Shown: one piece after another, positions 14,460 to 43,123 of the stretch
Layout of the letters: each line of letters starts with the position of its first letter
How positions within the stretch are numbered: position 1 is the stretch's first letter
Source: Nemertoderma westbladi
Lineage: Eukaryota; Animalia; Xenacoelomorpha
Assembly (NCBI GenBank): GCA_032718475.1
Contig: JAUCBJ010002031.1
Location: 1-46,201, forward strand
DNA: 46,201 nt
Direction of reading: 5' to 3'
The notes under the pieces: generated by a model
Databases searched by the model: none
Told to the model about the DNA's origin: nothing
The model's input: only the letters and a program-made list of their open reading frames with translations
Position numbers and translations under genes: made by a program

Positions 14460-15053
14460 TTATGATTGTTTCGATGTCATCGATAACCAGAAAGACGATC
14501 TGTTTCCTGGCATGAGATTAACAAGTTTCTTTAGGATAATCTCCTTCTTTGCTGTGTTAATTCCCCGTACACCTTCTTTCTTCTGTGGAATTTCTGGCTG
14601 ATACCTCTCTTGAAGGAATTCTACACACTTCTCTGCTTCTTTGAAGTCTCTTTTATAACCATCTTGCGACACCCTTTGTTAAATCTCACCTGGACTACCT
14701 CTGTAATATAGGGAAGCGCCTCTTTCAGCTTCTTGGAATACGTTAGTTTCTTCAACCACTTGTGGAATTCCGGGGTTAATACAACCAAATATTTTCTACT
14801 GTTGGCCATAACCATAGTGACGTATTTCAAATCATACATTGCTGGTTGTCTTTTAATACTCCTCTCTATATTTCCATGAACCGAATCGGCTAACATGTCC
14901 CTTGGTGAGGTACTTCAATGTGATTGACTGTGGCCCCCCTGTGGCATTGACAATCGCTACACATGCGCCAAAGAGCAACCGTTTTTATTTTGACCCGTAC
15001 AATTATCCAGCCAAAATATAAACTCTTTGGAATCCTGCTCTTCTCTGATGATC
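14460..15053 (-). pseudogene. Sola-type transposase, C-terminal part with frameshifts
   Basis: FIFWLDNCTGQNKN, KYLTKGH..MLADSVHGNIE, GINTAKKEII. Continues across the BEL insertion from 31811-31878. Confidence 0.8.
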
Positions 15054-16203
15054 TGTTACGGTATATGGCGCTGTATCCACAGTATTAGTCCATTATGCAG
15101 TATGCAGTATTAGTCCATTATGCAGTATGCAGTATTAGTCCGTTATACTGTACGTAATATTAGTCCGTTGTGCAGTATAATTATTTAGATAAGGCGCAGT
15201 GTGGTGACATTTAGGTAAGGAAGTTAAAACGCCCATATATTTTGCATCCATTCATTTTGTATAGTATGTAGCCCTACCTACGTAATTTTGTATTAGGATA
15301 TATGTAGATAGTTCCAGGGTAGCGAGTTTACTCGGACCCTGGATTTTGTGCTTGCTGATATTAGTTTGATAGGGCTAGCATATAGGGACGCTGTCCTGGC
15401 CATTCAGCAGCCAGAGACGTGATCCATTACCATATATGGTAATAATTTGAGGGCATAGGGCTACAATCTGGTCTCCTTATTGGATTAACTGCTTCCAGGT
15501 TGGTTTAATGCTAGCATGGACTGGAGAGCCAATGGGAGAGCGATTGAGTCACCTTATTGCATCACCCCATCCGGATCACCTATAAATTGGCGGTGTGCCG
15601 GTAGGGCCTTTGTTGTTCATATATTTGTTCATATGTTCATGCTTTATCACATGACACACCCCTGTTACAATTTACTTGCTGAGCTGTCTCTAATTTTGTA
15701 TTAGGATATCGTATTTTCTGCAATTTGCTAATTTTGATTAATTTCTTGGAATGATTTACTAGTGCGATTACTTTGCTTGTGTTTCTCAATAATTCCTTCG
15801 ATTACTGCAAATTACAATCGAACTATGATTTCTACCTTTGATTGATGGTTCTATGTGATTCTTTTCTGCGCAATAATCCCAAGGGATTCCTGAGACTGTC
15901 AGACTTTGTGATTTGCATGCGCCGCTACGGTAGCTATTAGCATAATGAAGGGCTAAGGTGCCAGTGGGCGGTGGGCACATCGGGGGGTTGAGCGACTAGG
16001 GAGAGCGGAGGATTCAAAAGCGGGCGACGCTGGCGGGGGTCAACGTTGCGGTCGGGCGATTTGGACTGTAGGTTGGAGACCGCTCGCTGGTACAGTAATT
16101 AGGGGGCTGATGATCCAGGTTTTGTCTCTATTTAGTATTAGGGGGCAGGAATTGGGTTAGTTAGGAAGCCTAGATGTACCCGGGAGGGGCCTGCATACCT
16201 TAC

Positions 16204-16234
<31 letters not shown>

Positions 16235-17252
16235 TGCGAGTAAGTAGATTGCGAATTAGTCAATTGCGAATTATTATGTTGCGAATTATATAATTGCAGA
16301 TTGTATAATTGCAAGTCGTGCTATTGTGATCTGTGATTGCTGACGCTGATTGGTGTGTTACTAAAGTGTGCCTATGATTACGAATGCTTAGATAGGCGCT
16401 CTTTTCCCTTTGATTGATTCTATCTCTTAGTTTACCGTAAATAATTACTGATTAGGTCAAAGTAATACAGTATTTTAGGCTGTTACATATTTGTGACTGT
16501 AATTAATTAGTAAAATTAAGAATTAGTACGCAGCATAGCGGAGAGTAGCTAAGGTAATAATTTAGAGTACCGTAAACTATTCACGCTAAGCGGTTATTTG
16601 CATTAGCGGGCAATAAGCTAGATCGCAGTAGTCAGTACGCAAGACACTAGTAAGTTGCTGGCCTAAAGCCAGCTGCAGGCAAGTTTAGACCCAGAGCGGT
16701 ATCACCTACGAAAGACATTGTACTGTACCAATTTTGATTATTTTAAATATTCTCGCATTCACACATTCCGTTAGGGAACCCTCAGTATTCGCGATTAGAA
16801 AAGACGTAAGCATTGGCGTATTTCAGTAGTAAAATTAGGCGTAAGAATATACTCTGAGTGCAAAGCCCCTCGCACTCGTCTTAAGTAAGCTTAGGGAGCC
16901 GACTCGGGTTTATTGTTTTGGTTATTCCCGCGTGGCTCATAGATTCGAACAGTTAGCTCTCTATCGAGCGATCGGTAGAGAAAGGAACAAGCGATTTTGC
17001 AGGAGTTGTGTAAATTTAGTAAAATATATTAGCGGACGGCAGATTAGCGCCATCCAACGGTAAGTAGCGGTTTTGTATTTAGCAACCCTTACAATTTAGT
17101 AATAGCACACTCCTGATCCCCTTTACTTAACAGTAGAGCAGTCTTTGTGTCTTATTGGTTAGGCGAGAGCTCATTAGGTTGGCAGAGAGGTATACGGGTA
17201 TTTGTCTGTTCAACAGTTCTGCTGTTAGTATAGGTGTCGCGGTTGTTTATCA
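15054..17252 (+). repeat. 5' LTR (2199 bp)
   Basis: Matches 29612-31810; the only mismatch noticed is G16770 vs A31328. Contains 25-bp tandem units near the start and (GTAA)n at ~16205-16233. Confidence 0.97.
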
Positions 17253-18358
17253 GTAAGGTATGTTTTGTTTGCTGTAGGCTGTAGCGTACAGTAGAACATT
17301 GAGTATATTCTTTTAGGCTGCTAGTTTAGATTACTGTATTCACTGGTTGCGTACGATAGTACAGTAGTACATTAGGCTGATTGCTGTTACTGCGTACGGT
17401 AGAAGGACATTTGTTTGCCGTACCACACACACAGTATCATTAGGCTGTTAGGTTGGTGTACTGTTTTACTTACTGTACTGCGTACAGTGGATGTACGGTA
17501 GTGCGTTTTTACTAATTGCGAATGCAGCAGTTCCTTACACCTTAGGCCTTAGGGCAAATTGTAATTAGTAAGTTTTTTGAAAATTTTAGCTAGGTTTGCG
17601 AGAATTCAGTTTCGGTCAAAATTATTTGTAAAATTCTAGAGTTTTGTACCGGTATGTTAGGTAACCGCTTAGTTATTTTATACCATCTGGAGATACATGG
17701 CAAGACGGAACTTCTGAGTTTGGGGTTCGTGTGGGTCTGCGGGTTCGGTTTGCAATCAGCGAAGGGCCTGAATCTTTGGACGCGGACGTGGAATCTCACA
17801 GCAAACAAGGTTAGTTGTTCTGTTGGCACCGGTGTGTTTGTGGAAGCAGTAAAAAATTATCGGTTGTTTAACTGCGAAGCTGAACTCAATTTATTAGTTA
17901 GGCTGTTAGGATATTTAGGTTTAGCCGGCCATGGTTTTTTGAATCGCTCAAGTTAGAGAGAGAGTTAGAGAGAGTCGCAACCCGAAGATGTAGCCACGCG
18001 CTAGTGGATACATATAATATTTGAAATTAAAATTACGTTGATTAGAGCTATATATAAAATTAGAAATATTCGGGCGGCAAGTTTATTTTGAATATTTTGT
18101 ATTAGATTCAAAGTTATTTTGTGCTATACCGGTATTTAATACTATATAGTAGCTATATAATAATATTTTTGTTTAAATATTGTGCTAGTATTTGCTATAA
18201 CTATACCCCATTAAATTCACAATATTGCATTGCGAATTTATTTGACATTTGGACCAACTGATTATTTGACAATTAATTTGACCGTATTTCGGTTAAATTA
18301 TAATTATATCTCGAACTTTTGCGAGATATTTTGCCGGAAGGCAAACATTATTTAGACT

Positions 18359-21300
18359 ATGAGTGTCTCAGACAAAGAGGCACTAGAGGACAGCTATGAG
18401 ACGGCGGCTGGACCGCCGACTGACGATAGCGTAAATATTACTGTTGATGACAATGCCGACTATGACGACGCAGCGAGCGACGCTGACGTAAGTGAACAGG
18501 AGGACGAGACAGTGACTAGTGAGGAAGAACAACAACCTCAAGTAATAGTATTAGGATCCCCTACCGCTACTGTAAGGAAGGATTGTACAGCAACCCGGAC
18601 AGAGGTGAGTGATAGGGAGGGTAGTGTAGCAGAAGCGAGAGCCCGGAGCCCGGTTTCCAGACCTGTGGGTATGGTAAGTGCCGTGGTCCCGACGGCTGTA
18701 AGGAGTACCCGTAGTTCCCGAAATAATCCTTCAAGTCCACCGAGTGTAAGTCAGGTAAGTGATAGAGAGTTCGACATCGCGATAAAGAAGAAACTTCGCG
18801 CGCATGCCGGACATATAACTCGGACGGCGGACAAGGTAAGGAAGATGTTAGCTGATTCAGCCAACATCGGGAGGGTAGAGTTAGTAGAGATTAGAAGATG
18901 ATATAACTCAGCGTTATTCAAGCAGACGGAGGAGCTTGCAGTCCTAGCGAAGAAGGCAGTAGAGTCTCAGTCGAGCGACGTGGCGACGAGGATTTACGAC
19001 AGGGTTTTAGCAGCCTTGTTGGAGCACCGCGAGTTATCGGAGCAATTCCGACGAGTTAGGACGGAGAACTGGCTGCTACGGACATCACAAGCGCAGGCGA
19101 CTCAAGTGAGTGACGCAGAGTTGAGAGAGTTAGTGGAGCGAGAAGAGATCCAAGACAAGGAGGAGCGCAGGTATCAAAGGGAAGTTACTAGCTGGCTGAT
19201 GCAGAATGGAGTGGTGGTACCAGGCCAGGTGCTACCGACGACGGAGAACATCCAACAGAGGACGTTGACTCCACCCGACGACGCATCCAGAGACAGCGGC
19301 GATTCCCAGGTTAGTCACGCGCGAGGGAAGGTTATTTGTGCTAGATCCCTTGTTTCTCACAACTCGGCGGAGGAGAGAAGATGCCAACTGGACGAACAAC
19401 AGGCGGAAGTTTTGCGTGCATCGGAAGCACGGAAGGAAGCCGAGCGGGAACGGGAGCGCACACGTAAGTTAGACGCAAAGTTGCGAGAGTTGGAAGAGAA
19501 AGGTAAGCGCGAGCAAGCGGAACGCGAACGCAAGGAACACGAACTCAAGCTTGAACGCGAACGCAAGGAACGCGAACTCCAGCTCGAACGCGAACAAAAG
19601 GAATATGAACTTCAACTCGAACACGAGCGCAAAGAACGCGAACTCGAGATCGAGAAGGAGCGACGGGCGTTGTATGAAGAGAAGGCGCGGGTGGAAGAAG
19701 AGAGCGCAGCGAGACGAGCGAGGGAAGAAGAAGAACGTAAACTGGCGCAGTTGGAAAGTGCGAGATTAAGTTTAGAGAGCGAAGAACGGACTAGGAAGGC
19801 GAATGAAATCGCCGAGAAGGGGATGCGAATGATCGAAGAATGTGGGGCGAGTGTAGGGACCGAGTTGCGAGAACTGTTCGCACTGCAGAAGGCCGAACAG
19901 GAAGCGAGAACTCCGACCATACGCGAGTCGACGACGACCAGAATTCCTATACCCGGTCCAGCTATTACGAGTACACGGATCGCTAAACCATTCTCTACAT
20001 ATCGCACGCCAGTTGGTATTAGTGCTTCACCTATCGCGCAGAATCCACGGCATCAGAACACCGCACCACTATACACCGAACGCGACAACGAAGAATTTAG
20101 AGAAGAAACTCCGACGGGCCGAGTATTGGGCGAACCGAACCCGCGGGTTTGGAATATGCGGACGGAGCGCCGACCCAGTTCGACGGAGAACTTCCGGGTT
20201 AAACCGGAAGAGGGATCATATGAGAGACAGCGGATTACTCAGATAGAGCCGACTATACAACAGAACCCTAGCCAGGAATTTATTACGAGGGATGAGTTAA
20301 GTGCTAGTTTAGCGCAAGCTATATCGCCGCACATCCAACCTATAACGGACATGCTTAGCAACCTACGGTTAAAGGAAGCAGCCCAGGTAAGAAGTAATTC
20401 TAATCCTAGCAGGCCTGAGTTAGATAAAGTCCAGCCTAGTCAACGAGTACGCATATCGGAGGAGACTATACCACATAGACCTCAGGTAAGGACGCCTGTC
20501 CCGAATATTCATAATCCCAACTTCGAAAATTCGGCCGAGAAATTTATTGAGGAGGCTTGGATCAGGGCCTCGGCGCGCAAACCATCGCGAGCGCTAAGGA
20601 CTGACACCGAGTCAAGCGATGAAGAGGAAGAAATGAGACGTCAGAAGTCCCGAAACTATAAGGAAAGAAGGACGGACGCGGAGCAGGTAAGTTGGAACCA
20701 CCGGGAAAGGACCAGACTTAACAACCCTGCGGAACTAAACCATTTGTTAACCCGGAACGACGCAACCCTTAGGGACATAGGTAAGTTTGCTGCTAGGCAA
20801 GGACTGCCGACGCAACAACCCCAGAAGTTTATGGGCAACCATAAGCACTGGAGGACCTTTAAAACCTATGTCGACGAGCAGCTAACCAACAGCACCTTTA
20901 CTCCCAATGAGAAGTTCAACTATTTGCTTCAAATGCTCCATCGAGAACCTAGAGCGATTGCTGATAACTTCGTCGGCAATGAAAGAGCATTCGAGTTAGC
21001 GATGAAGACGCTTAGCGACATCTACGGGAATAAAACCAAGATGGCACAGTCGATAGTAGAAGACTTGGGTAAGGGCGGAAGGATTACAACTCCGTTAGAG
21101 CTGTTGAACTTAGCGAACGCTATTTCGAACGCATTGGACATCTTGAGGACGGTGAATCTACCTCATCATGGTGATCACGCCGAAGTTTTGAAAAGCGTAA
21201 TAAGACGTTTAAACATGCGTTACCGACAGAAATGGCGCAAATTAGAGAATAAGTTGGAGGGCCAAGGTAAAGTATTGACACTTCAGCATATTCATGACAT

Positions 21301-24300
21301 GATAGCCACAGACGCAGTAGCAGAGATGAAATCAAACTTCTCAGAGGAGAATATGAGGGAGTCTAAACCTGTTACCGGTAAGTCTATGGTAAGTTTTGAC
21401 GATGATAGGACCACTGTGACTTATAACTCAGTAGACAGATATAATTCGAGTACCCCAGCCTTTAGATCAGACTCGCGAGTATGGTCAGGTGAGCGGTTAG
21501 ATAGACCTAGGTTAAAGCAACAGGAGTTGCCGGATGGATTTGCAGGTTGCCAATACTGCTTACTAAAGGAGGTAAGATCTGACGACCATAAGTTAGATAG
21601 TTGCAGACGGTTCAAGGAATTAAATTCGGAACAGAGAAGAGTTCAAGTGCGGACGTTGGACACCTGTTGGGCTTGTCTTGCGCCAGGACATGTACGGCGG
21701 CAGTGCCCGAACAGCAAGGACGGATGCATGGAATGCGGCAGACTACATCACAAGTTGCTACATGCGGATTTCCATACCCCAACGGACCGTTACTTACAGC
21801 GAAATCCTCAAAGGAAGGGGAGCAAAGAACCCGTATCGATAAGGAGGAATACGTACACTGGCATCCAGGACGATGGTTACCAACCAGGTTCGTCGGACGA
21901 GGATGGCGAGTCGAGCGCGAGAGAAGTGACCTGCCAAGGTTTCACCGCGGATAGTTCATCGACCAGCGCGCGGACGTATTTATCATCGGCCACGTCGGAA
22001 ATATTTAGCGTGATTCCGGTGAAACTCACCGGCGATAAGGGATCGAAGAGAATATATGTGATGTTGGACACTGCGTCCACATTATCGTATATCGACGAGG
22101 AAGTGGCGAGAGCTGTTTCTAGCTTCCAGAACGCTGAGGAGATCCAAATAGAGTTGAAGTCTATGCACGGGGTAGGAGACCTCAAGGGACACAGAATTTC
22201 GGTAGAACTAGATTCCCTACTTCCGAGAGACCAACACACTCGACAAGAACGGAAAGCTTTGCCATTGGACGGATTTAAGTGTCTAGCTATGAAGGGATTC
22301 GGCAGGCAATTAGGTAAGGTGCCGCCGATGAGTCCCATAGCACAGGAGTATTTTGACAAGCTCAGGATACCCAGACATCAGGTAGGTTATAGGAATGTTT
22401 CTATGTTGATTGGTGCAGAACAGCTGATCGCACACCAAATATGGGAAACGAGACCAGCTGAGCCGCATGTCAATGGACCACATGCCCATAGGACTATATT
22501 AGGTTGGTATACACGAGTACCCATGTCTTATGAGTTTACAGGTGGCGACAAGCCAATAGACAGATACGACGAATTACAGCCTATAACTCAACCACCGTTA
22601 GTAGAACCACCAGACATAGACGAGTTTAGGAGAACCTGTATTGACCACTATAGTGACTTTAGCGAGTCAGACGAGGAGTTGATTCCCGATAATGTTAGGT
22701 TGTCGGAACCACTTCATAATGACCGGACAGATAGTGAACCCGAGGACTACTGTTATCAGACCCGTGGGTCTGGTTCAGCGGCCCACACTACCTATTTGAC
22801 TAACGTTTTGACTTATACTGACATAGTGGAGGGTCAAGTGGCTAAATATCGAGACCTAGACATTTTCCAATACAGTGAGGAGGAATTACAGAAGGAATTG
22901 ATACGCCAGGACCTCGAGACAGGAGCCAGAACCGTCGAATGGCTGGATAGGGACGCAATGGAACCCGGTGGATATGACCTAGCCATGTCTACTGATGAGA
23001 AACGGTCGTTGGAGATGATGGAAGATACCATACGTCTACTACCGACTGGACATTTTGAAGTTGGAATGTTGTGGCGTCGACAACCACCTAAGTTGGAGAA
23101 CAACTACAACTTAGCCTTGAAAAGATTGAACGGAGTAAGGGCTCGGTTGTTGAGGAATCCAGGCATTAGGGAGAAGTATTGCGCCCAGATCAACAACTAT
23201 TTCGCCAAGGGATTTGCTGGGAAGGTAGAGGACCCTGACTTAGTGACAGACCAGACTTATTACCTTCCACACCACTATGTGACTCACCCTGACATGCCAG
23301 ACAAAGTCCGAGTAGTCAACGACTGCGCAGCAGTCTATAGAGGTATGTCCCTGAATTCAGAGTTGATGGATGGTCCCAACCTGAATAACTATTTGATTGG
23401 AATACTGTTGCGTTTTAGACAGCGGCGATTCGCATTTACTTGTGACATCGAGGCGATGTTCCACCAGGTAAGAGCCTGTAAGGCAGACCAGGATAGCCTT
23501 CGCTTTCTCTGGTATGAGAATGAAGACTTATCTGGCCCAGTGGTTACATATCAGATGTACGTTAGGATATTTGGCGCCCGCGATAGTCCGAATGGCACGC
23601 TGTTTGTTCTAAAGAAAACGGCAACAGCCCAGATTGGTAAGTATCCAGTAGAAGTAATCGAGTCTATATTGAGAAACTTCTATATGGACGACGGATTGGT
23701 GTCCAAGGACACGGCGGAACAAGCCATAGAAGTGGCTCACGGCCTGCAGGAGTGCTTGGCTACAGGGGGTTTTCCTCTAACCAAGTTCACTACAAACTCG
23801 GAGGCCCTATTAGAATCGTTCCCGGTAAAAGATCGCGGGAGCGGAGACATAGAATTGGGGGTAGAACCAATTCCCATGGCGCGAGTACTGGGACTCGCTT
23901 GGAATCCGAACTCAGATAAGTTCCAGGTAAGAGTTAGATTTGAGCCCAGTAGCCCAGACAAAGTTTTGACTAAGAGGATTTGCTTATCGACATTGAGTAG
24001 ACTATTTGACCCGATGAACTTTATCAGTCCGGTTATATTACAGGCACGAGCGTGCATGAGGAAAATTTGGTTGTCCGACTTAGAGTGGGACGAACCAATA
24101 TCTCCTATACATGCAAAGCAGTGGAGGGAGTGGGAAGCCGAGTTGCATCTATTGAAAAATATAGATGTACCCCGTTCCTACTTTCCGAATCAGCTGGTAT
24201 TTCCAGCTGATCTCGAACTCCACTTATTCAGTGACGCAAGTGACACCGGCTTTGGTATGGTAGCCTACCTTCGCCGAGAGGTAAGTCAGGACAAATTTGA

Positions 24301-25237
24301 GACGGCCTTTGTGACTTCTAGATCAAAGACAATGCCGGTCAAATACATGACTGTCCCTCGTGCAGAGTTACAGGCGGCTGTAGTTTCGGTCGAGGTAAGT
24401 AAACAAATAATTGAGGAGTTAGACACGACATTGACCTTATTCTATTGGACGGACGCATCCTTGGTGTTAGTATACATTGCGGCCGACAATATTGCACTAA
24501 AGACATTTGTGGCCAATAGACGCGCTCAGATCGTTGATTTTTCGACGAAGGAACAATGGAGACATTGTCCGGGAGTGTTGAACCCGGCCGACATAACTTC
24601 GAGAGGTGCAATGCCGGCGGAATTCTGTCGGGAAGAGTCGCAGGAGTTTTGGTTGCATGGACCTGATTTTCTAACGAGGACACAGGAACATTGGCCAGAG
24701 CGACTAAAGATAGTGACCAATCCGATGCCTGAAGATGCAGAAGTCAAAGTGGAGAAAGTCTCTAAGTCGAAGTCTAAAGCCAAACTTAAGTCATTGGAGC
24801 GGCCTGAAGAGTCATTGGAGCGGCCTGAAGAGTTATTGGAGCGGCCCGGAGACCTGTCAGACCAACAGACTTACGTGACTACTAGGTCAGGAAGGGTAAG
24901 TTACGACGTAAAACCGCCCTTACAGACTAAACCGGAGTCACAATTGGTAAGTGACGGACAGAAAATGACCGACACAATGGATCCTTTGGTTTCCAAACCT
25001 GCGGGTTTGGATTCGAAACTTCCATTAGTTAGCGGACAACCGTCGCTGGCATTAGAGTCATGCAGTGTTTATGACAAATTACTAAATTCGTCTGCCTCTT
25101 GGCTGATAATTTGTAAAAGAACTGCGTGGTTAAGCCGATACGTTTCGTACCTTTGTATAAAATATTCGAAACATTTGAGAGAACCATTGAGCACCAATAG
25201 TGAGCGAATTCGGAAATTGAAACAACCTCTGACATAG
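18359..25237 (+). CDS. BEL Gag-PR-RT-RNase H polyprotein with one in-frame TGA at 18899-18901
   Basis: ORFs 18359 and 18980 share a frame. Coiled-coil E/R/K region, QKFMGN Gag, three knuckles, MLDTAS protease, YYLPHH, DIEAMFHQ, NFYMDD, LFSDAS, FYWTDA, NPADITSRG. Confidence 0.92.
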
Positions 25238-26621
25238 GATGAGATTGATCAAGCGGAATTAAAGCATTTGAAACATTATCAAATGTGTGCCTTCCCGAAA
25301 GAATTCTATCTATTATCGGCTCAACGACCAACCCGATAAGGGTTTGATTTGTCATAGATCGAGAATCCAGACTGTCGACATAAACTCACAGTTTAGGTTC
25401 CCAGTGATAATCCCTAGTCACCCGATAGAATTGCAAAGAGCGATTCTATGGGATATACACAAGAGGTTGCATCACGCGGGAAGGTTACACTGTCTGTCGG
25501 CAGCGAGACAGCGATTCATTCTATTGCAGCCAAGCAGGGCAGTAGGCACTATGTACGACGCCTGTCTGGTTTGCAAGAGGGTGAACGCCAGAGTATTGGA
25601 ACAGGAGATGGCTGAACTCCCGGAAGCGAGAGTGCAGGCATATGACCCACCCTTTACGAACACAGGGGTGGATTGTTTTGGTCCGATTGAAGCAAAGAGT
25701 GGACGGCTGACCCACAAGCGATGGGGTCTGCTACTGACATGTATGGCGAGTAGAGCCATACACATTGAGCGTGTGGCAGACATGTCGACCAAATCTCTGC
25801 TCCTGGCCTTAAAGAGATTTATGGCCAGGAGAGGACTAGTAAAGGCGTTCTACTCTGACAAGGGTACAAACTTTGTCGGAGGGAATAGCGAGTTGAACGC
25901 GGCTCATAAAGCAGCACAGAATAAGGAAATTTCTGCAGCACTTTTGCCGCAACGAGTAGAATGGAGATTTAATACTCCAGAAAGTCCTTGGAGAGGAGGA
26001 AGTTGGGAGCGTTTGGTTCGCTCTGTGAAGCAGGCCATTGCCAAAACATTGCCTGTGAACAAACAACTTACCGACGACGAACTGGTCACAGCTTTCATTG
26101 AAATCGAGCATACCCTAAACTCGAGGCCGATAGCTATGTTGCCAGACGGTGTTGCATTAACGCCGAATCATTTGCTAATGCAGAGTCCAGCATTTCTTGT
26201 GCCGGCATCAGAACCCATTAGTGCCGACCTATATAGTCGTAAAAGCTGGAAAGTAACACAGTTTGTGGCGTACACATTCTGGGAATATTGGCGGGAATAC
26301 TATCTTCCCACCATATCCACCAGAACAAAGTGGTACAAAACGGTTCGGAGTCTCCAAAGGGGAGATTACGTATTGATAACCGAACCGATTGTCAAGAGAA
26401 AGTATTGGGAGACTGGAGTGATCTTGCACACACACCCAGACGTGCAAAACATAGTGCGCACAGTCACTGTGAAAATTAGGTGCAAGTGTCCGCACCCAAA
26501 GAAGTGTAAAACTAATGGTTTACACACCTTGGACCGACCAGTCCAAGATATCGTGTTATTAGAGGAGACACGTATCGAGACGGGAGATTATAATTTGTCT
26601 CCTGCCTCAAAACAGAATTAG
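25238..26621 (+). CDS. BEL integrase, cut off from Pol by a TAG and a frameshifting deletion near 25300
   Basis: After the TAG the frame reads DEIDQAELKHLKHYQMCAFPKE, then shifts to KNSIYYRL. HHCC zinc finger (IHKRLHHAG...CLVC), GVDCFGP, SDKGTNF, GGSWER, LNSRP. Confidence 0.9.
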
Positions 26622-26731
26622 TGTTGGACGCAACTCACTTCGTATGCATTCCTCGTATGCAAATACAAGGAAATGCATAGGAGCGGGGTTGTGGTGATTT
26701 GCGTTGAGTTTTGTCTGGTGGGTATCAAAAC

Positions 26732-27080
26732 TGGTAAACAACCGCGACACCTATACTAACAGCAGAACTGTTGAACAGACAAATACCCGTATACCTCTCT
26801 GCCAACCTAATGAGCTCTCGCCTAACCAATAAGACACAAAGACTGCTCTACTGTTAAGTAAAGGGGATCAGGAGTGTGCTATTACTAAATTGTAAGGGTT
26901 GCTAAATACAAAACCGCTACTTACCGTTGGATGGCGCTAATCTGCCGTCCGCTAATATATTTTACTAAATTTACACAGCTCCTGCAAAATCGCTTGTTCC
27001 TTTCTCTACCGATCGCTCGATAGAGAGCTAACTATTCGAATCTATGAGCCACGCGGGAATAACCAAAACAATAAACCCGA
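26732..27080 (-). repeat. Internal inverted copy of the terminal 349 bp of the LTR
   Basis: Reverse complement of 16904-17252 (and 31462-31810) with 3 mismatches seen. Confidence 0.95.
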
Positions 27081-27723
27081 CCACGGGTATTGTGGGAAAA
27101 TTAGAAAATTTTAAAAAATTAGAAGTGAACCCAAGACAATTCCAGACGCTGTGTATAGACGCGTTTTTGAATTCGTCTATAGATAAACAGTAATTCAAAA
27201 GTCGTGAAGCCTGGAAAATAGCATTTAGAAACCATGGTGACGGCTATATTACGTAGGAGTGTAAATTGAGTTTAGCAACTTCCACAGATTGGTGCCAACA
27301 GTGCAACTAAGGTGCTAAAGGTTAGTAGCACCAGAGGCGTACATGGACCCCACTCAGTAGTTTGCAGGATGTGTGATGTTCGATTATCAAACCTGTGGGT
27401 TTGGTATAGTCGAGTATTGTGGCTATGGTCCTTTCTAACTACTGTAGTTTAGTACGAGTAATGGGAGTAGTTTGGGCATCAAAAAGTGAGTTGGTCACGG
27501 CCAGTTTATCTCCAAAGTTTTTGCGCTATGCATGGGAATAGGTTAGAGGATAGTTAGTTAGGAAGAGACGGGATCTAGAGAGTCGAACCTGAACTGCTGG
27601 AAGGCAGCTGGAAGGGGGGTTCGGGAAGTCTGTCCTTCGGCGACATCTAACTGATTACCCACGGTGTAATTGGTTTGCGTAACGGAACACTTATTGGGAT
27701 ATATATGTATATACGCGGGCATA

Positions 27724-28792
27724 ATGGAGAAGGATATTAGAGCGCAACCGTGCAGAGGATTTACTGCCAGAGAGGAGGCGGAGTTACCATTCGCGCGACC
27801 GGGATGTAAAGATTCGAACGTTTACTACCATGGGCGGTCGGTGATGGAGCTAAATGGGAAATACAAACCCACGATTCCCGACCGACTAGACGAGCAACAT
27901 CCAGAACCGATATTAACGCGATGTCAAGCTCACCAGTTCCTTAGATATAACGAGGGAGGTTACCCGATGAGCAACCCGATGATCAGTATCGACTTCAGCG
28001 GAAAGCGACCTCCGAGACCCATTACGCCGACCGTTACAACATTAGATCCGTATACGGAGATTAAACATGTTCGACACCCGCTTTGATAGACACGGCGGCG
28101 GCCATTTCGCTATACCGAGCCTATAAAGACCTAGAGGCGCGGCGCGAAGCGGCACGGGACTCGAGTTCCTGGACCACGTTCACTTCGCTTCACCAGGAAA
28201 GGAAGGTCACGCCTGAGTATCCAGACGAGATTCGCGCAGTCCATCCGTCTACTAACCATACCCACGATCCGCGATTTATACGATATTTACTCCAAATTAT
28301 TTCGGGAAGTTTCGACGAACGCATTATTAAGCCCGAATATGTCCAATCCTTTATATATCATCGTCGCTCTGATATATACGTCTAGAATTATTACCCAGCG
28401 CACAATTGGCGGCCTAAGGAGACTCGTTTGGGGTCATTGACCTCTGAACGAGTGGAGGATCAGGACCGCCGCGCCCACAGCGACAACAGCCGGAGCTCAC
28501 AGCTCGCGGCAAGTACCAGAAGGAGGAGTCCTTGGCAAGCGTCAAGCCAAGGACGAGCAGTCCCATTCTACTGTTGAAGAAAGAGGAGTTGGCGGAGGCG
28601 CCCACAGGGACACGACAAATGGGACGAGGCCGAGGGAGGAGCACCAGTCGGGAGATAGTCGGTGCCCAGGGAACGTCGTCGCCGGTTCCGGGAAGTGACG
28701 CCTCAAGGACGCCGTCAACAGAGTCTACAGGGGGTAGACTGGTGTATCTGGAGAAGGGAGCGAGCCCGAGAGACCCAGGAGCTAGCCGATGA
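27724..28792 (+). CDS. Cluster of small orphan ORFs (27724-28086, 28083-28385, 28532-28792) in the env-like position
   Basis: GC-rich island of consecutive plus-strand ORFs; first two overlap at TTGA; no recognisable domain or transmembrane segment. Confidence 0.35.
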
Positions 28793-29603
28793 GACTATAA
28801 TATCACGGAGCGACAAACTCTAGACATATACATCATCGTCGCTCTGATGTATATCGTAGGTTTGATAAACATTCGACTGGACTCATATACACTAGTCGTA
28901 TCCATGTTTTAGAATTTTATTTTCGAAGGCCAAAAATATTGAAAGTAAATACTTTAACTTTGTAGTCCGATTGGAAATAGTAAATACTTTAACTATATTT
29001 GATTTTGTGTATATGACTTTATTTGCTCTAAAGTTTATTGAAAGAGGCAAAGGAAATGATTGGGGAGACGAACCCGCGGGTTTGGCTTACTCCTTTCACT
29101 TACCTGAGCAATCATCAAACCAAGATGATTTGCGTTTTTTATAAGAAATTAAGTAAAGTCCGAAAATGAAAGAAATTATTACGTATTTTATATTTAGTTT
29201 GATTATCGGCCTTTAATGCAATTTAGTTAAAAATTTAGCCTCAAATACGTTTATATTTAGTTTATCTTGTTAATGTTGATCGTTAATTGAGATGGGAAAT
29301 GGGGGACATTGTCCTAGCCATGTTCCATTTCAATAAGTAGATCGTTAATTTGTAAATAAATAAAGGAAGTAATATTTTTGTAAATTTAATTTGTATGTAG
29401 TAATCATTATGTAGTAAGAATGAACGAGAAACAATATTTTGTAAATTTAATTTGTATGTAATTCATTATGCAATATCTATAGCAATATTTGTAAATAGTA
29501 GAATTATTGTGTTATTTAGATTAGTTGGAAGAAATTTATTTTGTTTTGTATACATCACCTTATACTCTTCTACAATTGGAGGGAAACATTATATGATTTC
29601 CCT

Positions 29604-29611
29604 TGGAGCGG
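29604..29611 (+). promoter_or_regulatory. Polypurine tract (TGGAGCGG) abutting the 3' LTR
   Basis: Directly precedes TGTTACGG at 29612. Confidence 0.8.
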
Positions 29612-30761
29612 TGTTACGGTATATGGCGCTGTATCCACAGTATTAGTCCATTATGCAGTATGCAGTATTAGTCCATTATGCAGTATGCAGTATTAGTCCG
29701 TTATACTGTACGTAATATTAGTCCGTTGTGCAGTATAATTATTTAGATAAGGCGCAGTGTGGTGACATTTAGGTAAGGAAGTTAAAACGCCCATATATTT
29801 TGCATCCATTCATTTTGTATAGTATGTAGCCCTACCTACGTAATTTTGTATTAGGATATATGTAGATAGTTCCAGGGTAGCGAGTTTACTCGGACCCTGG
29901 ATTTTGTGCTTGCTGATATTAGTTTGATAGGGCTAGCATATAGGGACGCTGTCCTGGCCATTCAGCAGCCAGAGACGTGATCCATTACCATATATGGTAA
30001 TAATTTGAGGGCATAGGGCTACAATCTGGTCTCCTTATTGGATTAACTGCTTCCAGGTTGGTTTAATGCTAGCATGGACTGGAGAGCCAATGGGAGAGCG
30101 ATTGAGTCACCTTATTGCATCACCCCATCCGGATCACCTATAAATTGGCGGTGTGCCGGTAGGGCCTTTGTTGTTCATATATTTGTTCATATGTTCATGC
30201 TTTATCACATGACACACCCCTGTTACAATTTACTTGCTGAGCTGTCTCTAATTTTGTATTAGGATATCGTATTTTCTGCAATTTGCTAATTTTGATTAAT
30301 TTCTTGGAATGATTTACTAGTGCGATTACTTTGCTTGTGTTTCTCAATAATTCCTTCGATTACTGCAAATTACAATCGAACTATGATTTCTACCTTTGAT
30401 TGATGGTTCTATGTGATTCTTTTCTGCGCAATAATCCCAAGGGATTCCTGAGACTGTCAGACTTTGTGATTTGCATGCGCCGCTACGGTAGCTATTAGCA
30501 TAATGAAGGGCTAAGGTGCCAGTGGGCGGTGGGCACATCGGGGGGTTGAGCGACTAGGGAGAGCGGAGGATTCAAAAGCGGGCGACGCTGGCGGGGGTCA
30601 ACGTTGCGGTCGGGCGATTTGGACTGTAGGTTGGAGACCGCTCGCTGGTACAGTAATTAGGGGGCTGATGATCCAGGTTTTGTCTCTATTTAGTATTAGG
30701 GGGCAGGAATTGGGTTAGTTAGGAAGCCTAGATGTACCCGGGAGGGGCCTGCATACCTTAC

Positions 30762-30792
<31 letters not shown>

Positions 30793-31810
30793 TGCGAGTA
30801 AGTAGATTGCGAATTAGTCAATTGCGAATTATTATGTTGCGAATTATATAATTGCAGATTGTATAATTGCAAGTCGTGCTATTGTGATCTGTGATTGCTG
30901 ACGCTGATTGGTGTGTTACTAAAGTGTGCCTATGATTACGAATGCTTAGATAGGCGCTCTTTTCCCTTTGATTGATTCTATCTCTTAGTTTACCGTAAAT
31001 AATTACTGATTAGGTCAAAGTAATACAGTATTTTAGGCTGTTACATATTTGTGACTGTAATTAATTAGTAAAATTAAGAATTAGTACGCAGCATAGCGGA
31101 GAGTAGCTAAGGTAATAATTTAGAGTACCGTAAACTATTCACGCTAAGCGGTTATTTGCATTAGCGGGCAATAAGCTAGATCGCAGTAGTCAGTACGCAA
31201 GACACTAGTAAGTTGCTGGCCTAAAGCCAGCTGCAGGCAAGTTTAGACCCAGAGCGGTATCACCTACGAAAGACATTGTACTGTACCAATTTTGATTATT
31301 TTAAATATTCTCGCATTCACACATTCCATTAGGGAACCCTCAGTATTCGCGATTAGAAAAGACGTAAGCATTGGCGTATTTCAGTAGTAAAATTAGGCGT
31401 AAGAATATACTCTGAGTGCAAAGCCCCTCGCACTCGTCTTAAGTAAGCTTAGGGAGCCGACTCGGGTTTATTGTTTTGGTTATTCCCGCGTGGCTCATAG
31501 ATTCGAACAGTTAGCTCTCTATCGAGCGATCGGTAGAGAAAGGAACAAGCGATTTTGCAGGAGTTGTGTAAATTTAGTAAAATATATTAGCGGACGGCAG
31601 ATTAGCGCCATCCAACGGTAAGTAGCGGTTTTGTATTTAGCAACCCTTACAATTTAGTAATAGCACACTCCTGATCCCCTTTACTTAACAGTAGAGCAGT
31701 CTTTGTGTCTTATTGGTTAGGCGAGAGCTCATTAGGTTGGCAGAGAGGTATACGGGTATTTGTCTGTTCAACAGTTCTGCTGTTAGTATAGGTGTCGCGG
31801 TTGTTTATCA
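29612..31810 (+). repeat. 3' LTR (2199 bp)
   Basis: Direct repeat of 15054-17252, followed by TSD TGATC. Confidence 0.97.
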
Positions 31811-31878
31811 TGATCCTTAACATACAATCGGCCAATGAGTCAGCATCCCGACCTTGCAGCCCCTCATGCCACACCACA
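31811..31878 (-). pseudogene. Sola-type transposase fragment upstream of the BEL insertion site
   Basis: Reads VVWHEGLQGRDADSLADCMLRI and continues in frame into IREEQDSKEFIFWLDNC once one TSD copy is removed. Confidence 0.8.
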
Positions 31879-32034: not shown

Positions 32035-32234
32035 TCTCAGTATAGTATAGTCAGTACAGCAGCAGGACAGTTTACATTAAATATTGAATTATTATTAGAT
32101 ATTGAATTAAACTATTTGACTTTAAACTGATTCTGATTTTGATATTGGTTTTTTATTGATATTGTGGAATTCAACGCCTAGTTGCACAGCAAAGCACAAA
32201 GCGACAGACCCTAGCAAAAAAGTAAAGAGAGAAT

Positions 32235-33437
32235 ATGTCCCACTCGCAACCGACTACGGGTGGGGGCCGCCGGTCAAGCATTGCTTCTGACCATCGGCAA
32301 AGCTCATCCGGATCTATACACACCACCATGCAGAAGAAACGGGAGGTTAAGTCAGCAAAGATAACACCTCCCGCTAACGTTGAAGCTGTTTCGGTACCTT
32401 CAAACCAAAGAAACGACGGTAGCGAAGAGATAGAAGTTTGCTGCTCGGGTGCGAACTGCGAAATTTCGATGATATGTATCGCCGCGAACGGAACAGACTT
32501 TGGCCGAGTTGACTTTTATTGTGGTCGATGTGTTGGGCGATGGTTGTCTCGAACATCAAAAGATTTAGAAGATTTGGAGTCTCGCATAGACGATAAACTT
32601 CTTGAATTTCAGCAACAACTTGATGCTGCTGAAGACAAGTCGACCAATATCGAAAAAAGTATAAATGACAACCGACAACTAGTAAATACCAGACTTAAGG
32701 AAATGCGAGTTGAGATTGAGACCAGTGTGGAGGATCTACATGGGAAACTGGACGGACTTGATTCCCCCTCGATCTTAATAGATGATGGCGAATGGAATGA
32801 AGTTCCATCCTCCCGTAAGTCCAAACGCAGCAATAACTCCCACGAACCTTCTAATCTAGCTCTTCTTGCGCGCAGAGTTAAGAAGGGTGAAGAAACAGAA
32901 CAACAGCGTCGTAAAGATAATATTGTTGTTAGCGGAACCTCAGTAGAGGACGATGATAACCAGCTTGTGATTGATATTGCCAAATCTATACGCATTGAGT
33001 TGGTATCCACGGATATATCCACTAAACGGGTGGGTAAAATTAAAGATAACGGGACGCAAACAATGGTGGTCACCTTATCTCCAAATACGAGAGCAACCTT
33101 ACTTCGGAAATCGCGCGAGCTGCGTCAATCACAACGCTACAACAACGTATATATATCGCCCGATTACACTCCTGCCGAATCCAATTATCAATACCAACTA
33201 AGAGAAGAACGCCGTAATCTACAGAAATCACATCCTGATAAACGTTGGGTTATATACAGGAGCGAAGTTATAGATGCTGCTAAACTGAACCATCGTAATG
33301 CGTCTCCTTACGGAACTCAGGGATCTCTACCAGTTCAAAAGGAAGTCCCTTCCAGCCACCGTTCTAAGACCATCTACAGATCTAAGGCGGCACAGCCATC
33401 CGTGACCCCTGTATCGCCATCCAAACGTGTAGACTGA
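32235..33437 (+). CDS. LINE ORF1 protein
   Basis: Cys cluster (PHD-like ...FYCGRC), coiled coil, RRKDNIVVSG and VYISPDYT motifs typical of CR1/L2-group ORF1. Confidence 0.85.
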   Translation: MSHSQPTTGGGRRSSIASDHRQSSSGSIHTTMQKKREVKSAKITPPANVEAVSVPSNQRNDGSEEIEVCCSGANCEISMICIAANGTDFGRVDFYCGRCVGRWLSRTSKDLEDLESRIDDKLLEFQQQLDAAEDKSTNIEKSINDNRQLVNTRLKEMRVEIETSVEDLHGKLDGLDSPSILIDDGEWNEVPSSRKSKRSNNSHEPSNLALLARRVKKGEETEQQRRKDNIVVSGTSVEDDDNQLVIDIAKSIRIELVSTDISTKRVGKIKDNGTQTMVVTLSPNTRATLLRKSRELRQSQRYNNVYISPDYTPAESNYQYQLREERRNLQKSHPDKRWVIYRSEVIDAAKLNHRNASPYGTQGSLPVQKEVPSSHRSKTIYRSKAAQPSVTPVSPSKRVD

Positions 33438-36400
33438 CTATCTGGCGAGTCTCCAGAAACTGACGGGTCTGAGGGAGCAGTCGAGTCTCCAGAGGCTGTC
33501 GGGTCTGAGGGGGCGGTCGAGTCTCCAGAAACTGTCGGGTCTGAGGGAGCGGTCGAGTCTCCAGAGACTGTCGGGTCTCAGGGGGCGATCGAGTCTCCAG
33601 AGACTATCGGGTCTGAGGGGGCGGTCGAGTCTCCAGAAACTGTCGGGTCTGAGGGAGCGGTCGAGTCTCCAGAGACTGTCGGGTCTCAGGGGGCGGTCGA
33701 GTCTCCAGAGACTGTCGGGTCTGAGGGGGCGGTCGAGTCCCCAGAAACTGTTGGGTCTGAGGGAGCGGTCGAGTATCCAGAGACTGTTGTGTCTCAGGGG
33801 GTGGTCGAGTCTCCAGAGACTGTCGGATCTGAGGGAGCGGTCGAGTCTCCAGAGACTGTCGGGTCTCAGGGGGCGGTCGAGTCTCCAGAGACTGTCGGGT
33901 CTGAGGGGGCGGTCGAGTCCCCAGAAACTGTTGGGTCTGTGGGAGCGGTCGAGTATCCAGAGGCTGTCGTGTCTCAGGGGGTGGTCGAGTCTCCAGAGAC
34001 TGTCGGATCTGAGGGAGCGGTCGAGTCTCCAGAGACTGTCGGGTCTCAGGGGGCGGTCAAGCCTCCAGACCCTATCGGGTCTGAGTGTGCGATCGAGTAT
34101 CCAGAGACTGTCGGGTCTCAGGTGGCGGTCGAGTCTCCAGAGACTCTGCATACTGCATCCCATACCTCACCAGATGTGCCAATTATATCTCATGTCACTG
34201 CGAACTTATTGCTATATAATGCACGTAGTCTCCTCAATCTACACAGACGTAAAAGTTTAGCAAATTTAATTTTATTACATAATTATTGTATATTGTGTAT
34301 AACTGAAACGTGGTTAACGACTGATATCCTAGATAGTGAATTGTTTTTCTCAGGTTATAATTTAGTACGTACCGAGCGCGAAGTGAGTGAGAATGGGGTG
34401 TCTTCTCATGGTGGTGTCCTTATTGCAATAAAATCTGGGATTAACTACACCACGGAAGAGATCCCGGGTGCTTCTAAAACTCTTGCATCATCTGTTGCGA
34501 TTTGTAAGTGCAATTTTAATGCTTGGCGTTGTTTAATTTTGTGCATATACAACCCCCCTGAAAAGAGCCCATATCGCTTACCCGTTACAGACTTCTTCAC
34601 ACTATTTGAATACATACAATCGTGGAGAAGTCGTGTTGACGAAATTATTTTATGTGGAGATACTAATCTGCCACTAATAAATTGGGAATCACATTTTTCA
34701 GCTGACGATTATGAAAAGTCAATCTTATCTTTTATTGATAAATACAACCTTAAACAGCACGTAACATTCCCTACTCGCGGTACTAATACCCTTGATGTTT
34801 TTATCACACTTACTGATACTACAGTTCTCAATACGGAAGTTGACAATAATCTTACCAGACAGTTGAATGCATATCAAATCAAATCGGATCATGACCCTGT
34901 CGTCTGCTTATTAGACCTACGATCTGTGAAGAGCACACAAACACAGCGCGAATATGATTCACATACGATGGTATATTACAGTTTTTGCAAAATCGACGTA
35001 CTGAAAGCAACTCAAGTTTGCGCCGCACATCCATTTGTGTTAGAATATCCTATAGTAGATAATGTGGTGGATTATGACTTGATTATTGAAAAGTGGTACA
35101 AATGGATATATAAAGTAATTGACAGTTGTGTACCAAAACGGACCATCCACAGGGCATCTCAACCACCATGGATTTCACAAAAAACATCCCACAAATTAAA
35201 ACAGCTACATACAGTACAACGGAAAATCTCTAAATATAAATCACCTGCACTTACATTACAGATGAAATTTGATCAACTCCAAAAAGACATTGAAAGTGAC
35301 ATTATAGAAGATCAAGCGCAGTATGAGACACGCCTTTCAAACTCGAGATCGATGAAACACTTATTTAAATACTTTAAAAGTCTCCGCAGATCATCACAAC
35401 TACCACCAGTTTTGCATTACAGAAATCACATTGCCTCCACGGACATTGAACAAGCTGAGCTTTTTAATGCATTTTTCCAATCTGTCTTTAAAACACCTCG
35501 ACTACCTACTAGCAAGGTCTCCCCTCCAATTGATATTGTTGATCCCCCTAACTTCACAACGTCCAGCAACTATGATGTATCGGTAGAGACCGTGGAGAAT
35601 ATTCTGTCCGCTCTTGATGTTACTAAATCCCGAGGACCAGATAATATTTCGCCTGGGTTTCTTAAATCGTTAGCGAAAGTCCTTGCACCTTCTTTGTCTA
35701 CAATATTTAAAATACTGAAAAAAGTCAACTATTTTCCGATTTTGTGGAAACATGCGTTAGTAAATCCCCAACATAAAAATGGGAGTAAAATTAAAATAAT
35801 TTTATACCGTCCGATTTCACTTCTCGCAATCCCAGGGAAAGTATTCGAACGGTGTATATTCATTGCGGTATATGAACAGGTGAGGGAGCGACTACACAAC
35901 GCCCAGCATGGCTTTAGAAAATGTAGATCAACAATTACACAACTTCTTATTTTTTTGGATAATGTATATAAAGGTATGGATGATGGACAGTTGGCGGTGG
36001 AGACAGTTTACTTGGATTTTCAAAAAGCATTTGACTCAGTTAGCCACGAATCCCTACTTAAAAAGTTGTGGAGAATAGGAGTACGAGGAAATCTCTGGTA
36101 TATTATTCGTAGTTATTTATCTGGAAGAACTCAATCTGTAAGGGTTGGCAAGGCGACATCCACCGCTAGAGACGTAGCTAGTGGCATGGCTCAGGGATCT
36201 CTCCTGGGCCCCCTGCTTTTCCTCATCGAGGACAATGACCTCCCAGAAGTCTGTGGTGTCAGCATTCCTTATCTTCTCGCAGATGACTGTAAATTAATGT
36301 CAATATCACCGATAAACGATACGATAAACACCCAACTCGATATTGATCAACTTGTTACTTGGGGTCTGGAAGCCGGATTAGAATTTAATGAGTCGAAGTG

Positions 36401-37187
36401 TAAGCAGATAGTATTTCGTGGGGATATTGAAGGGCGCAGTATAAACTCAAAATTAATATCGCGCGTTGATAAAGAAAAAGATTTGGGAATAACAATTACG
36501 TCTAATTTGTCCTGGACGGCGCATATCAAGGAGAAATGTAAAAAGGGAAATAATGCATTTCAATTAATCCGAAGAAATTGTGCAGCAACACTTCCTATTC
36601 TGGCAAAGTTGAATTTGTATAAATCCATGGTGTTACCCATAATTCTATATGGGTCGGCCTGCTGGTATCCAAACAAAACTGATTCCCATCTGGTAGAAAG
36701 CATCCAACGCAGAAGTACAATTTGGATATTAGGCAGTGATGAGTATACATACAAAGAAAGACTATTAAAACTAAATATACTCCCAATATCTTTATACCTC
36801 CAATTATGTGACCTTCTAACACTATCAAAAATAATAAATAATAAATATGACATCGACTGGACGCAGCACGCCAAAGTAAAGACGCACAATCGGGACAGGA
36901 ATACTCGTAGTACAGATCACCTTACATTCGATATATCGCAACCACGGAAATGCATTTCGAAGCAAAATTTTTGGTTCCGTGCGCCGCTTCTAGCTAATCA
37001 GTTACCATCGCGAACTGAATTTTTTAACCATGTTGGTCTAAAGGCTCGACTCCTAGACCTATTCTGGCGACACTTCCATAAACGATATGACGTAGATAGC
37101 AACTGTACATGGAGATTAAACTGCGATTGTGTCCAAATGAATTGTAATTTGTGTCTCCCGAATCTTGATGACCTACTCAACCCATAA
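33438..37187 (+). CDS. LINE ORF2: acidic repeat linker + AP endonuclease + reverse transcriptase
   Basis: YNARSL, ITETWL, GDTN, SDH; GPDNI, YRPISLL, QHGFR, LDFQKAFDSV, QGSLLGP, LADD. Open from 33438 with no AUG before the endonuclease. Confidence 0.92.
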   Translation, partial: LSGESPETDGSEGAVESPEAVGSEGAVESPETVGSEGAVESPETVGSQGAIESPETIGSEGAVESPETVGSEGAVESPETVGSQGAVESPETVGSEGAVESPETVGSEGAVEYPETVVSQGVVESPETVGSEGAVESPETVGSQGAVESPETVGSEGAVESPETVGSVGAVEYPEAVVSQGVVESPETVGSEGAVESPETVGSQGAVKPPDPIGSECAIEYPETVGSQVAVESPETLHTASHTSPDVPIISHVTANLLLYNARSLLNLHRRKSLANLILLHNYCILCITETWLTTDILDSELFFSGYNLVRTEREVSENGVSSHGGVLIAIKSGINYTTEEIPGASKTLASSVAICKCNFNAWRCLILCIYNPPEKSPYRLPVTDFFTLFEYIQSWRSRVDEIILCGDTNLPLINWESHFSADDYEKSILSFIDKYNLKQHVTFPTRGTNTLDVFITLTDTTVLNTEVDNNLTRQLNAYQIKSDHDPVVCLLDLRSVKSTQTQREYDSHTMVYYSFCKIDVLKATQVCAAHPFVLEYPIVDNVVDYDLIIEKWYKWIYKVIDSCVPKRTIHRASQPPWISQKTSHKLKQLHTVQRKISKYKSPALTLQMKFDQLQKDIESDIIEDQAQYETRLSNSRSMKHLFKYFKSLRRSSQLPPVLHYRNHIASTDIEQAELFNAFFQSVFKTPRLPTSKVSPPIDIVDPPNFTTSSNYDVSVETVENILSALDVTKSRGPDNISPGFLKSLAKVLAPSLSTIFKILKKVNYFPILWKHALVNPQHKNGSKIKIILYRPISLLAIPGKVFERCIFIAVYEQVRERLHNAQHGFRKCRSTITQLLIFLDNVYKGMDDGQLAVETVYLDFQKAFDSVSHESLLKKLWRIGVRGNLWYIIRSYLSGRTQSVRVGKATSTARDVASGMAQGSLLGPLLFLIEDNDLPEVCGVSIPYLLADDCKLMSISPINDTINTQLDIDQLVTWGLEAGLEFNESKCKQIVFRGDIEGRSINSKLISRVDKEKDLGITITSNLSWTAHIKEKCKKGNNAFQLIRRNCAATLPILAKLNLYKSMVLPIILYGSACWYPNKTDSHLVESIQRRSTIWILGSDEYTYKERLLKLNILPISLYLQLCDLLTLSKIINNKYDIDWTQHAKVKTHNRDRNTRSTDHLTFDISQPRKCISKQNFWFRAPLLANQLPSRTEFFNHVGLKARLLDLFWRHFHKRYDVDSNCTWRLNCDCVQMNCNLCLPNLDDLLNP
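33445..34146 (+). repeat. 36-bp coding tandem repeat, ~19-20 copies (VESPETVGSEGA)
   Basis: gtcgagtctccagagactgtcgggtctgagggggcg units. Confidence 0.95.
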
Positions 37188-43090: not shown

Positions 43091-43123
43091 ATTTACACTT
43101 TTTAACGCGGAGTTTCGATTTAG

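Follow-up and report, generated by a model that had tools for sequence, protein, structure and literature searches.

A BEL/Pao retrotransposon with a likely self-primer and an inverted LTR segment probably acquired by template switching

The window analysed here, a stretch of 46,201 nt of Nemertoderma westbladi DNA, contains a retrotransposon that raises the question of how reverse transcription starts in an element that has no recognisable tRNA primer-binding site (PBS) and carries an inverted copy of its own LTR end, and whether this copy takes part in priming. The preliminary description had called the element a BEL retrotransposon, and its Pao pol domains, direct LTRs and target-site duplication confirmed this. 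Domain searches matched PF05380, PF03564, PF18701 and PF17921, the protease, YMDD, RNase H and integrase motifs followed the BEL order PR-RT-RH-IN, and homologues carried the same domain set. Judged by its proteins and ends the element is a BEL/Pao member, having in common with Belpaoviridae a DUF1759 gag, the PR-RT-RH-IN order, Peptidase_A17, DUF5641, TG...CA LTRs and a 5-bp target-site duplication, while it differs from them by the lack of a TGG PBS, by its 2.2-kb LTRs and by a 3-kb 3' region with the inverted LTR segment. The integrase-to-LTR distance is ~3 kb, compared with a median near 200 nt in relatives. The two LTRs differ by 1 mismatch over 2199 bp, and the coding frame of the window copy is broken by a stop at 18899-18901 and by a frame break near 25237-25272. 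The best protein matches were ~42% identical and were mostly unnamed or from marine invertebrates or fish; no close relative was found in the metagenome, viral or prokaryote contigs searched, and exact element sequences had no match in the sequence collection searched.

Table 1 Coordinates of the element and its parts within the window.
Feature	Position	Strand	Basis or remark
Whole element	15054-31810	+	LTR and target-site duplication comparison
Left target-site duplication TGATC	15049..15053	+	right copy at 31811-31815
5' LTR, 2199 bp, TG...CA	15054..17252	+	repeat scan and end comparison
3' LTR, 2199 bp	29612..31810	+	repeat scan and end comparison
Candidate self-primer (10 Watson-Crick pairs and 1 G-U with the PBS)	16193..16203	+	complement search
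LTR 3' part complemented by the inverted segment	16904..17252 (also 31462-31810)	+	repeat scan
Putative non-tRNA PBS, adjoining the LTR; overlaps a splice-donor-like motif at 17258	17253..17263	+	sequence
gag-PR-RT-RH reading frame: DUF1759, zinc knuckle, LDTAS, YMDD, Peptidase_A17	18360..25237	+	domain and motif search
Integrase part: Integrase_H2C2, DUF5641, DDE-type motifs	25272..26621	+	domain and motif search
Inverted copy of the LTR 3' end (LTR sense on the minus strand)	26732..27080	-	repeat scan, BLAST
12-base tail with the second TGG, probable distal junction of a 361-bp insertion	27081..27095	+	inferred
Long 3' region: hairpin motifs, short orphan ORFs and, ahead of the LTR, a short purine tract	27096..29611	+	sequence

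Several further features of the element and its surroundings were recorded. The hairpin CCAAACC-YGYG-GGTTTGG recurs at least four times, in gag, pol and the 3' region (~20136, ~24994, ~27388 and ~29070, with a weaker form at ~18652), and is a candidate packaging or dimer signal; a looser version of the pattern is expected 0.14 times per element-sized sequence, a figure for a pattern picked after the matches were seen. Two copies of a 9-10-bp hairpin (28352-28378 and 28827-28853) differ by a compensatory pair change, and the overlapping short ORFs 27724-28083 and 28065-28382 are possibly one split accessory gene; neither had a family match, the best Atlas score of 0.88 for 27724-28083 being a lead only. 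Outside the element, the window holds a LINE-like element with endonuclease and RT (32226-37187), including a 36-bp coding tandem array (33446-34145), and at 40931-43092 lie 60 copies of a 36-bp unit that is open throughout as a 694-codon frame.

As had been noted earlier, a TGG-type PBS is missing: GTAAGGTATG comes after the 5' LTR, TGG first occurs at 17344, 92 bases downstream, and in the window tRNA and Rfam scans found neither a tRNA gene nor any other RNA family. We found that the 10 bases after the LTR are perfectly complementary to 16194-16203 within the LTR (11 with a G-U pair), and that the match starts at the first post-LTR base. Such a 10-mer complement arose in 0-12 of 3000 Markov resamples per order, and in 2 of 500 resamples when offsets of 0-4 were permitted, and 16193-16203 forms the most stable PBS duplex along the whole LTR (-14.4 kcal/mol). 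Comparison with the element itself gives a weaker contrast, with an LTR complement for 13 of 1094 leader 10-mers (1.2%; the leader is GT-rich) and 26 of 9464 internal 10-mers. Reverse transcription in this element is likely primed by an 11-base piece of its own LTR transcript. The tRNA-free priming proposed in the preliminary description is likely, but through 16193-16203 and probably not through the inverted segment; this primer would require a transcript that extends upstream of 16904, and the transcription start proposed near 16904 was not supported. The RNA start site is putative, since no TATA box lies at -30 of 16193 (TATAAA is present at 15581) and the primer would sit 1049 nt from the LTR end, compared with 62-275 in relatives.

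Directly after the primer come 7.8 AGTA repeats (16204-16234), in which GTAAGT motifs resembling splice donors occur several times; another donor-like motif, AAG/GTATGT, overlaps the PBS. An LTR intron would shorten the 1049-nt loop between primer and PBS. A U5-side duplex seen on cofolding was matched by 45 of 1000 shuffles but also by 162 of 213 LTR windows, and was rejected as evidence for a pretzel-like fold. One match to the PBS complement (44943) and another to the leader (11742) were dismissed as short and outside the element.

The inverted copy of the last 349 bp of the LTR proved real. The repeat scan returned the inverted pairs 16904-17254/26730-27080 and 26732-27080/31462-31810, both 99% complementary, and, apart from 3 mismatches to both LTRs (26734, 26978 and 27034), 26732-27080 reads as the reverse complement of 16904-17252 (BLAST E 5e-179). 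A TGG stands at both 26732-26734 and 27093-27095, and the inserted block is better read as 361 bp, consisting of 346 bp of inverted LTR, a 12-base tail and one TGG, in which case the mismatch at 26734 belongs to the flank. CAAAAC (26726-26731) does complement GTTTTG (17262-17267) as described, but the hexamer is also the closing part of a local 7-bp hairpin right upstream, and its pairing with the leader is worth only -3.7 kcal/mol. AATAAA is present at 27070, but it is simply the complement of the LTR's TTTATT, which any such inversion would bring along. In sequence the segment does correspond to a minus-strand strong-stop product; its far end coincides with the midpoint of a short LTR palindrome and so need not mark a transcript end. 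Hairpins flanking the segment were borderline on the left (44/1000 and 142/2000) and non-significant on the right (612/1000 and 454/2000), and were rejected as relics of fold-back. Between segment and LTR we counted 2 differences in 346 bp, against 1 between the LTRs, which exceeds the prediction from the age of this insertion (P 0.003 at the LTR-pair rate, 0.05 at the private-site rate) and suggests that the segment is older than this insertion, i.e. inherited.

The panhandle RNA envisaged earlier was also predicted by folding, with a U5/segment duplex of -681 kcal/mol compared with -177 for the two parts folded apart. This duplex of ~346 bp is predicted to end within 3 bases of the primer 3' end; because the primer and segment helices form a large pseudoknot, the three-strand fold cannot show both together. 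In full-length RNA, such a duplex would be either a brake or a source of dsRNA: RT would have to displace it, and it would be a Dicer substrate.

An alignment-based metagenome scan matched at least 599 stretches, of which 592 were confirmed and the best 80 of these 592 retained (33-43% identity), and one further locus from viral contigs brought the set to 81 relatives. No LTR-derived inverted copy between integrase and LTR was found by self-BLAST in any of the 81, many of which are partial. A purine tract or LTR start after the integrase was recognisable in 51 of 80 loci (median 197 nt), and in 38 of these 51 the LTR starts within 346 nt of the integrase, too short a space for such a segment. 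A 459-bp inverted repeat in L054 was rejected as a parallel, since it lies outside its element.

Among the 24 loci with direct repeats that we inspected, 9 had a readable 5' LTR end (L036 was left out as uncertain), and TGG was absent in 7 of the 9. Three of these 7 have an 8-11-base complement in their own LTR, namely L065 with 11 bases (2/500), L015 with 10 (7/500) and L042 with 8 (9/500); three related loci have 7 bases (56-61/500) and L026 none. The TGG-type relatives L024 and L032 have no self-complement (255/500 and 436/500). In L016, L058 and L060 (also L036), a common PBS core GTTCGAATT just past the LTR end pairs with AGTTCGAAC of the LTR; this pairing, 7 Watson-Crick pairs or 9 with G-U, is partly palindromic and non-significant alone. 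An RT-RH tree (77 sequences, FastTree, midpoint root) grouped the element with all TGG-less loci at a support of 0.976, on a long branch (1.29), whereas an integrase tree of 93 sequences placed it among tRNA-PBS elements instead (0.83-0.99).

Other copies of the element were found in 6 of the 7 sequencing runs listed, from 4 studies, and contigs of four runs (X1, X3, X4 and X5) were compared with the window. Matching contigs numbered 21,385 in X1, 9,069 in X3, 29 in X4 and 136 in X5, and summed contig depth over the coding body, which is no copy number, was mostly 40,000-100,000 in X1 and X3, pointing to many copies in these runs and a highly amplified family. At 27034 every contig of all four runs has the LTR-matching letter, which makes the mismatch of the window copy private or rare, and at 13 or more of the listed sites the window copy departs from nearly all contigs. 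Coding contigs of X5 are 2.5-6.5% different from the window, while the segment is 99% identical to the LTR. In the 3' region, summed contig depth over 28052-29302 drops to roughly one quarter of the body value in X1 and X3, and in X5 it increases several-fold; this stretch varies among copies and probably travels in non-autonomous derivatives.

A form without the segment is implied by contig coordinates. X5 record 29 (1034 long, depth 31.5) covers 25767-26731 and has 47 further letters; the next contig, record 30, is of equal depth (32) and begins at 27110. Assembly with 31-letter words is expected to leave a 30-letter overlap, which puts the 47 letters at 27093-27139. Position 27093 starts the same TGG as 26732, a start found at 14 of 520 nearby positions, and since joints are assigned to the earliest possible position, a skip from 26732 to 27093 would be placed at exactly 26731. 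X4 record 24 likewise stops at 26731, with 18 letters left. We infer from this deduced joint that a copy without the segment exists in X5 and perhaps in X4. The other way of reading these contigs, as running on into an LTR-identical inverted copy, fits worse, because the joint would then sit at 26729. In X1 and X3, no joints or loose ends at 26731-26734, 27080 or 27093 were among the rows listed; a segment-free majority should give deep ones, and the deepest joint listed there reached ~300, against the 40,000-100,000 of the body. Detection is patchy, a loose end at 28163 appearing in X3 only, and among the contigs listed none bridges either segment junction in the window's form. Depth over the segment was rejected as proof of family-wide presence because solo LTRs give the same. 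It is fairly probable, on this reading of the joints, that the segment is common in the amplified subfamily, and copies with and without it, which appear to exist, would form a natural control.

The implied segment-free sister and the absence from all 81 relatives indicate that the inverted segment is probably a template-switch product and not a primer, and probably an acquired, dispensable insertion; together with the separate self-primer, they also speak against the segment as a priming device, a role suggested in the preliminary description. We give an even chance to the full reading, in which a self-primed element carries an inherited 361-bp template-switch insertion that does not serve as primer. 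The RNA would start at, or be cut near, 16193, and RNase H would free the primer as in Tf1, whereupon 16193-16203 would pair with the PBS at 17253-17263 to start reverse transcription. On one occasion RT may have switched to a U5 template at the LTR/PBS junction, which has 4-5 bases in common with the flank (ACTG occurs both at this junction and in the left flank, and the flank's CAAAAC may in turn be shared with the leader). The nascent DNA end may have reached the priming site and gone on to copy U5, or RT may have run along strong-stop DNA; it would have copied 346 bases and then jumped back at TGG. Much of the amplified subfamily would now carry the segment, which would pair with U5 almost up to the primer 3' end and act as a brake for RT or a dsRNA source, tolerated but not required.

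A doubtful but serious alternative keeps the same self-priming and template-switch origin but makes the segment private to this copy or to a small dead-end sublineage, without function. The segment-free form in X5 and perhaps X4, the 81 relatives without a segment, the broken reading frame and the sites at which the window copy departs from nearly all contigs are all in keeping with it, as is the expectation that a 346-bp duplex over U5 should hinder RT. Against it, X1 and X3 should then show the deep joints or loose ends that are missing from the rows listed, patchy as sensitivity is, and the mismatch count suggests that the segment predates this insertion. If the segment is private, it would be no more than a readable fossil of an RT slip; if most copies carry it, the question becomes how the element multiplies with ~346 bp of duplex RNA before its primer, a duplex that should block RT and feed RNAi. 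In an unlikely variant of the self-primed reading, the captured inverted U5 would be an RNA clamp that times or assists RT initiation or tunes host silencing, the clamp-bearing subfamily having amplified massively while segment-free sisters stayed rare. Such a clamp, if true, would be a newly evolved cis-element caught early.

That the priming RNA does not come from the RNA 5' end at all is improbable. The PBS could instead pair with half of a tRNA, an RNA end produced by splicing or polyadenylation at 16203-16205 or some other RNA, with transcription starting at TATAAA 15581 or near 16904, and the lack of a TATA box at -30 of 16193, the long primer-PBS distance and the position of the primer stretch at a splice-acceptor-like/donor-like border would suit this; what weighs on the other side is the exact 11-long match from the first post-LTR base, as in Tf1, and the relatives that are alike with other letters. 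We consider it quite improbable that the segment is a working replication part, whether as an RNA strong-stop ended by the AATAAA at 27070, as a fold-back primer or as a DIRS-like template that rebuilds the LTR end in step. It ends at the LTR terminus, beside the primer 3' end, its 99% LTR identity stands against the 2.5-6.5% of X5 coding contigs in a highly amplified family, and DIRS-1's internal complementary region (ICR) is described as essential for retrotransposition (PMC7192593). But a separate self-primer exists and the terminal bases are common to the flank, the element has direct LTRs, a target-site duplication and no tyrosine recombinase, and its junction hairpins are borderline or non-significant (44/1000 and 612/1000). 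Given the implied segment-free sister, the high identity needs only a young age; a young segment makes concerted evolution of segment and LTR superfluous. An assembly or chimeric-read artefact, to which the lack of a bridging contig among those listed might point, is very improbable: the segment departs from both LTRs at sites where these are identical to each other, stands 9.5 and 4.4 kb away, and is followed by a 12-base tail and TGG repeat found in neither LTR.

Neither self-priming in BEL/Pao nor an internal inverted LTR (U5) copy was reported in the mainly freely accessible literature searched, and the main texts of PMC554778 and PMC3118150 hold no mention of a PBS. Template switching by RT at short homologies is described in PMC6894440 for same-orientation recombination; the window junctions likewise have 3-5 bases in common, whereas the window segment is inverted, unlike the cases described there. 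In DIRS-1, a tyrosine-recombinase element with inverted LTRs, the ICR measures 88 bp and corresponds to both of their outer ends; PMC7192593 describes it as essential. The window element resembles DIRS-1 in that an internal stretch downstream of its coding region complements the end of a terminal repeat, but its segment is 346 bp, matches one end of direct LTRs, sits in a DDE-integrase element and seems dispensable, and five short 3' ORFs of the element gave no match; by these features the element is not DIRS1-like. A close parallel in priming is Tf1, whose primer is the 11-base start of its own RNA, released by RNase H cleavage (PMC7175516); this happens within a structure of three duplexes (10.1101/2022.12.06.519325). 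With Tf1, Tf2 and Tj1 of the Tf1/sushi group (Ty3/gypsy), the window element has in common a PBS complementary to 11 bases of its own LTR and no tRNA site (PMC7175516, PMC4600332, 10.1101/2022.12.06.519325), but it differs by its BEL/Pao proteins, by the lack of a chromodomain match and by a primer ~1050 nt from the PBS, and its counterparts of the flanking duplexes of the Tf1 'pretzel' are not above background. At the PBS it would operate in the manner of Tf1, without belonging to Tf1/sushi. Self-priming has been reported for the Tf1/sushi, Tcn1 and TAR lineages and for some plant copia lineages (PMC6317226), and self-priming in BEL/Pao would add an independent case beside Tf1/sushi and plant copia, with a long distance between primer and PBS.
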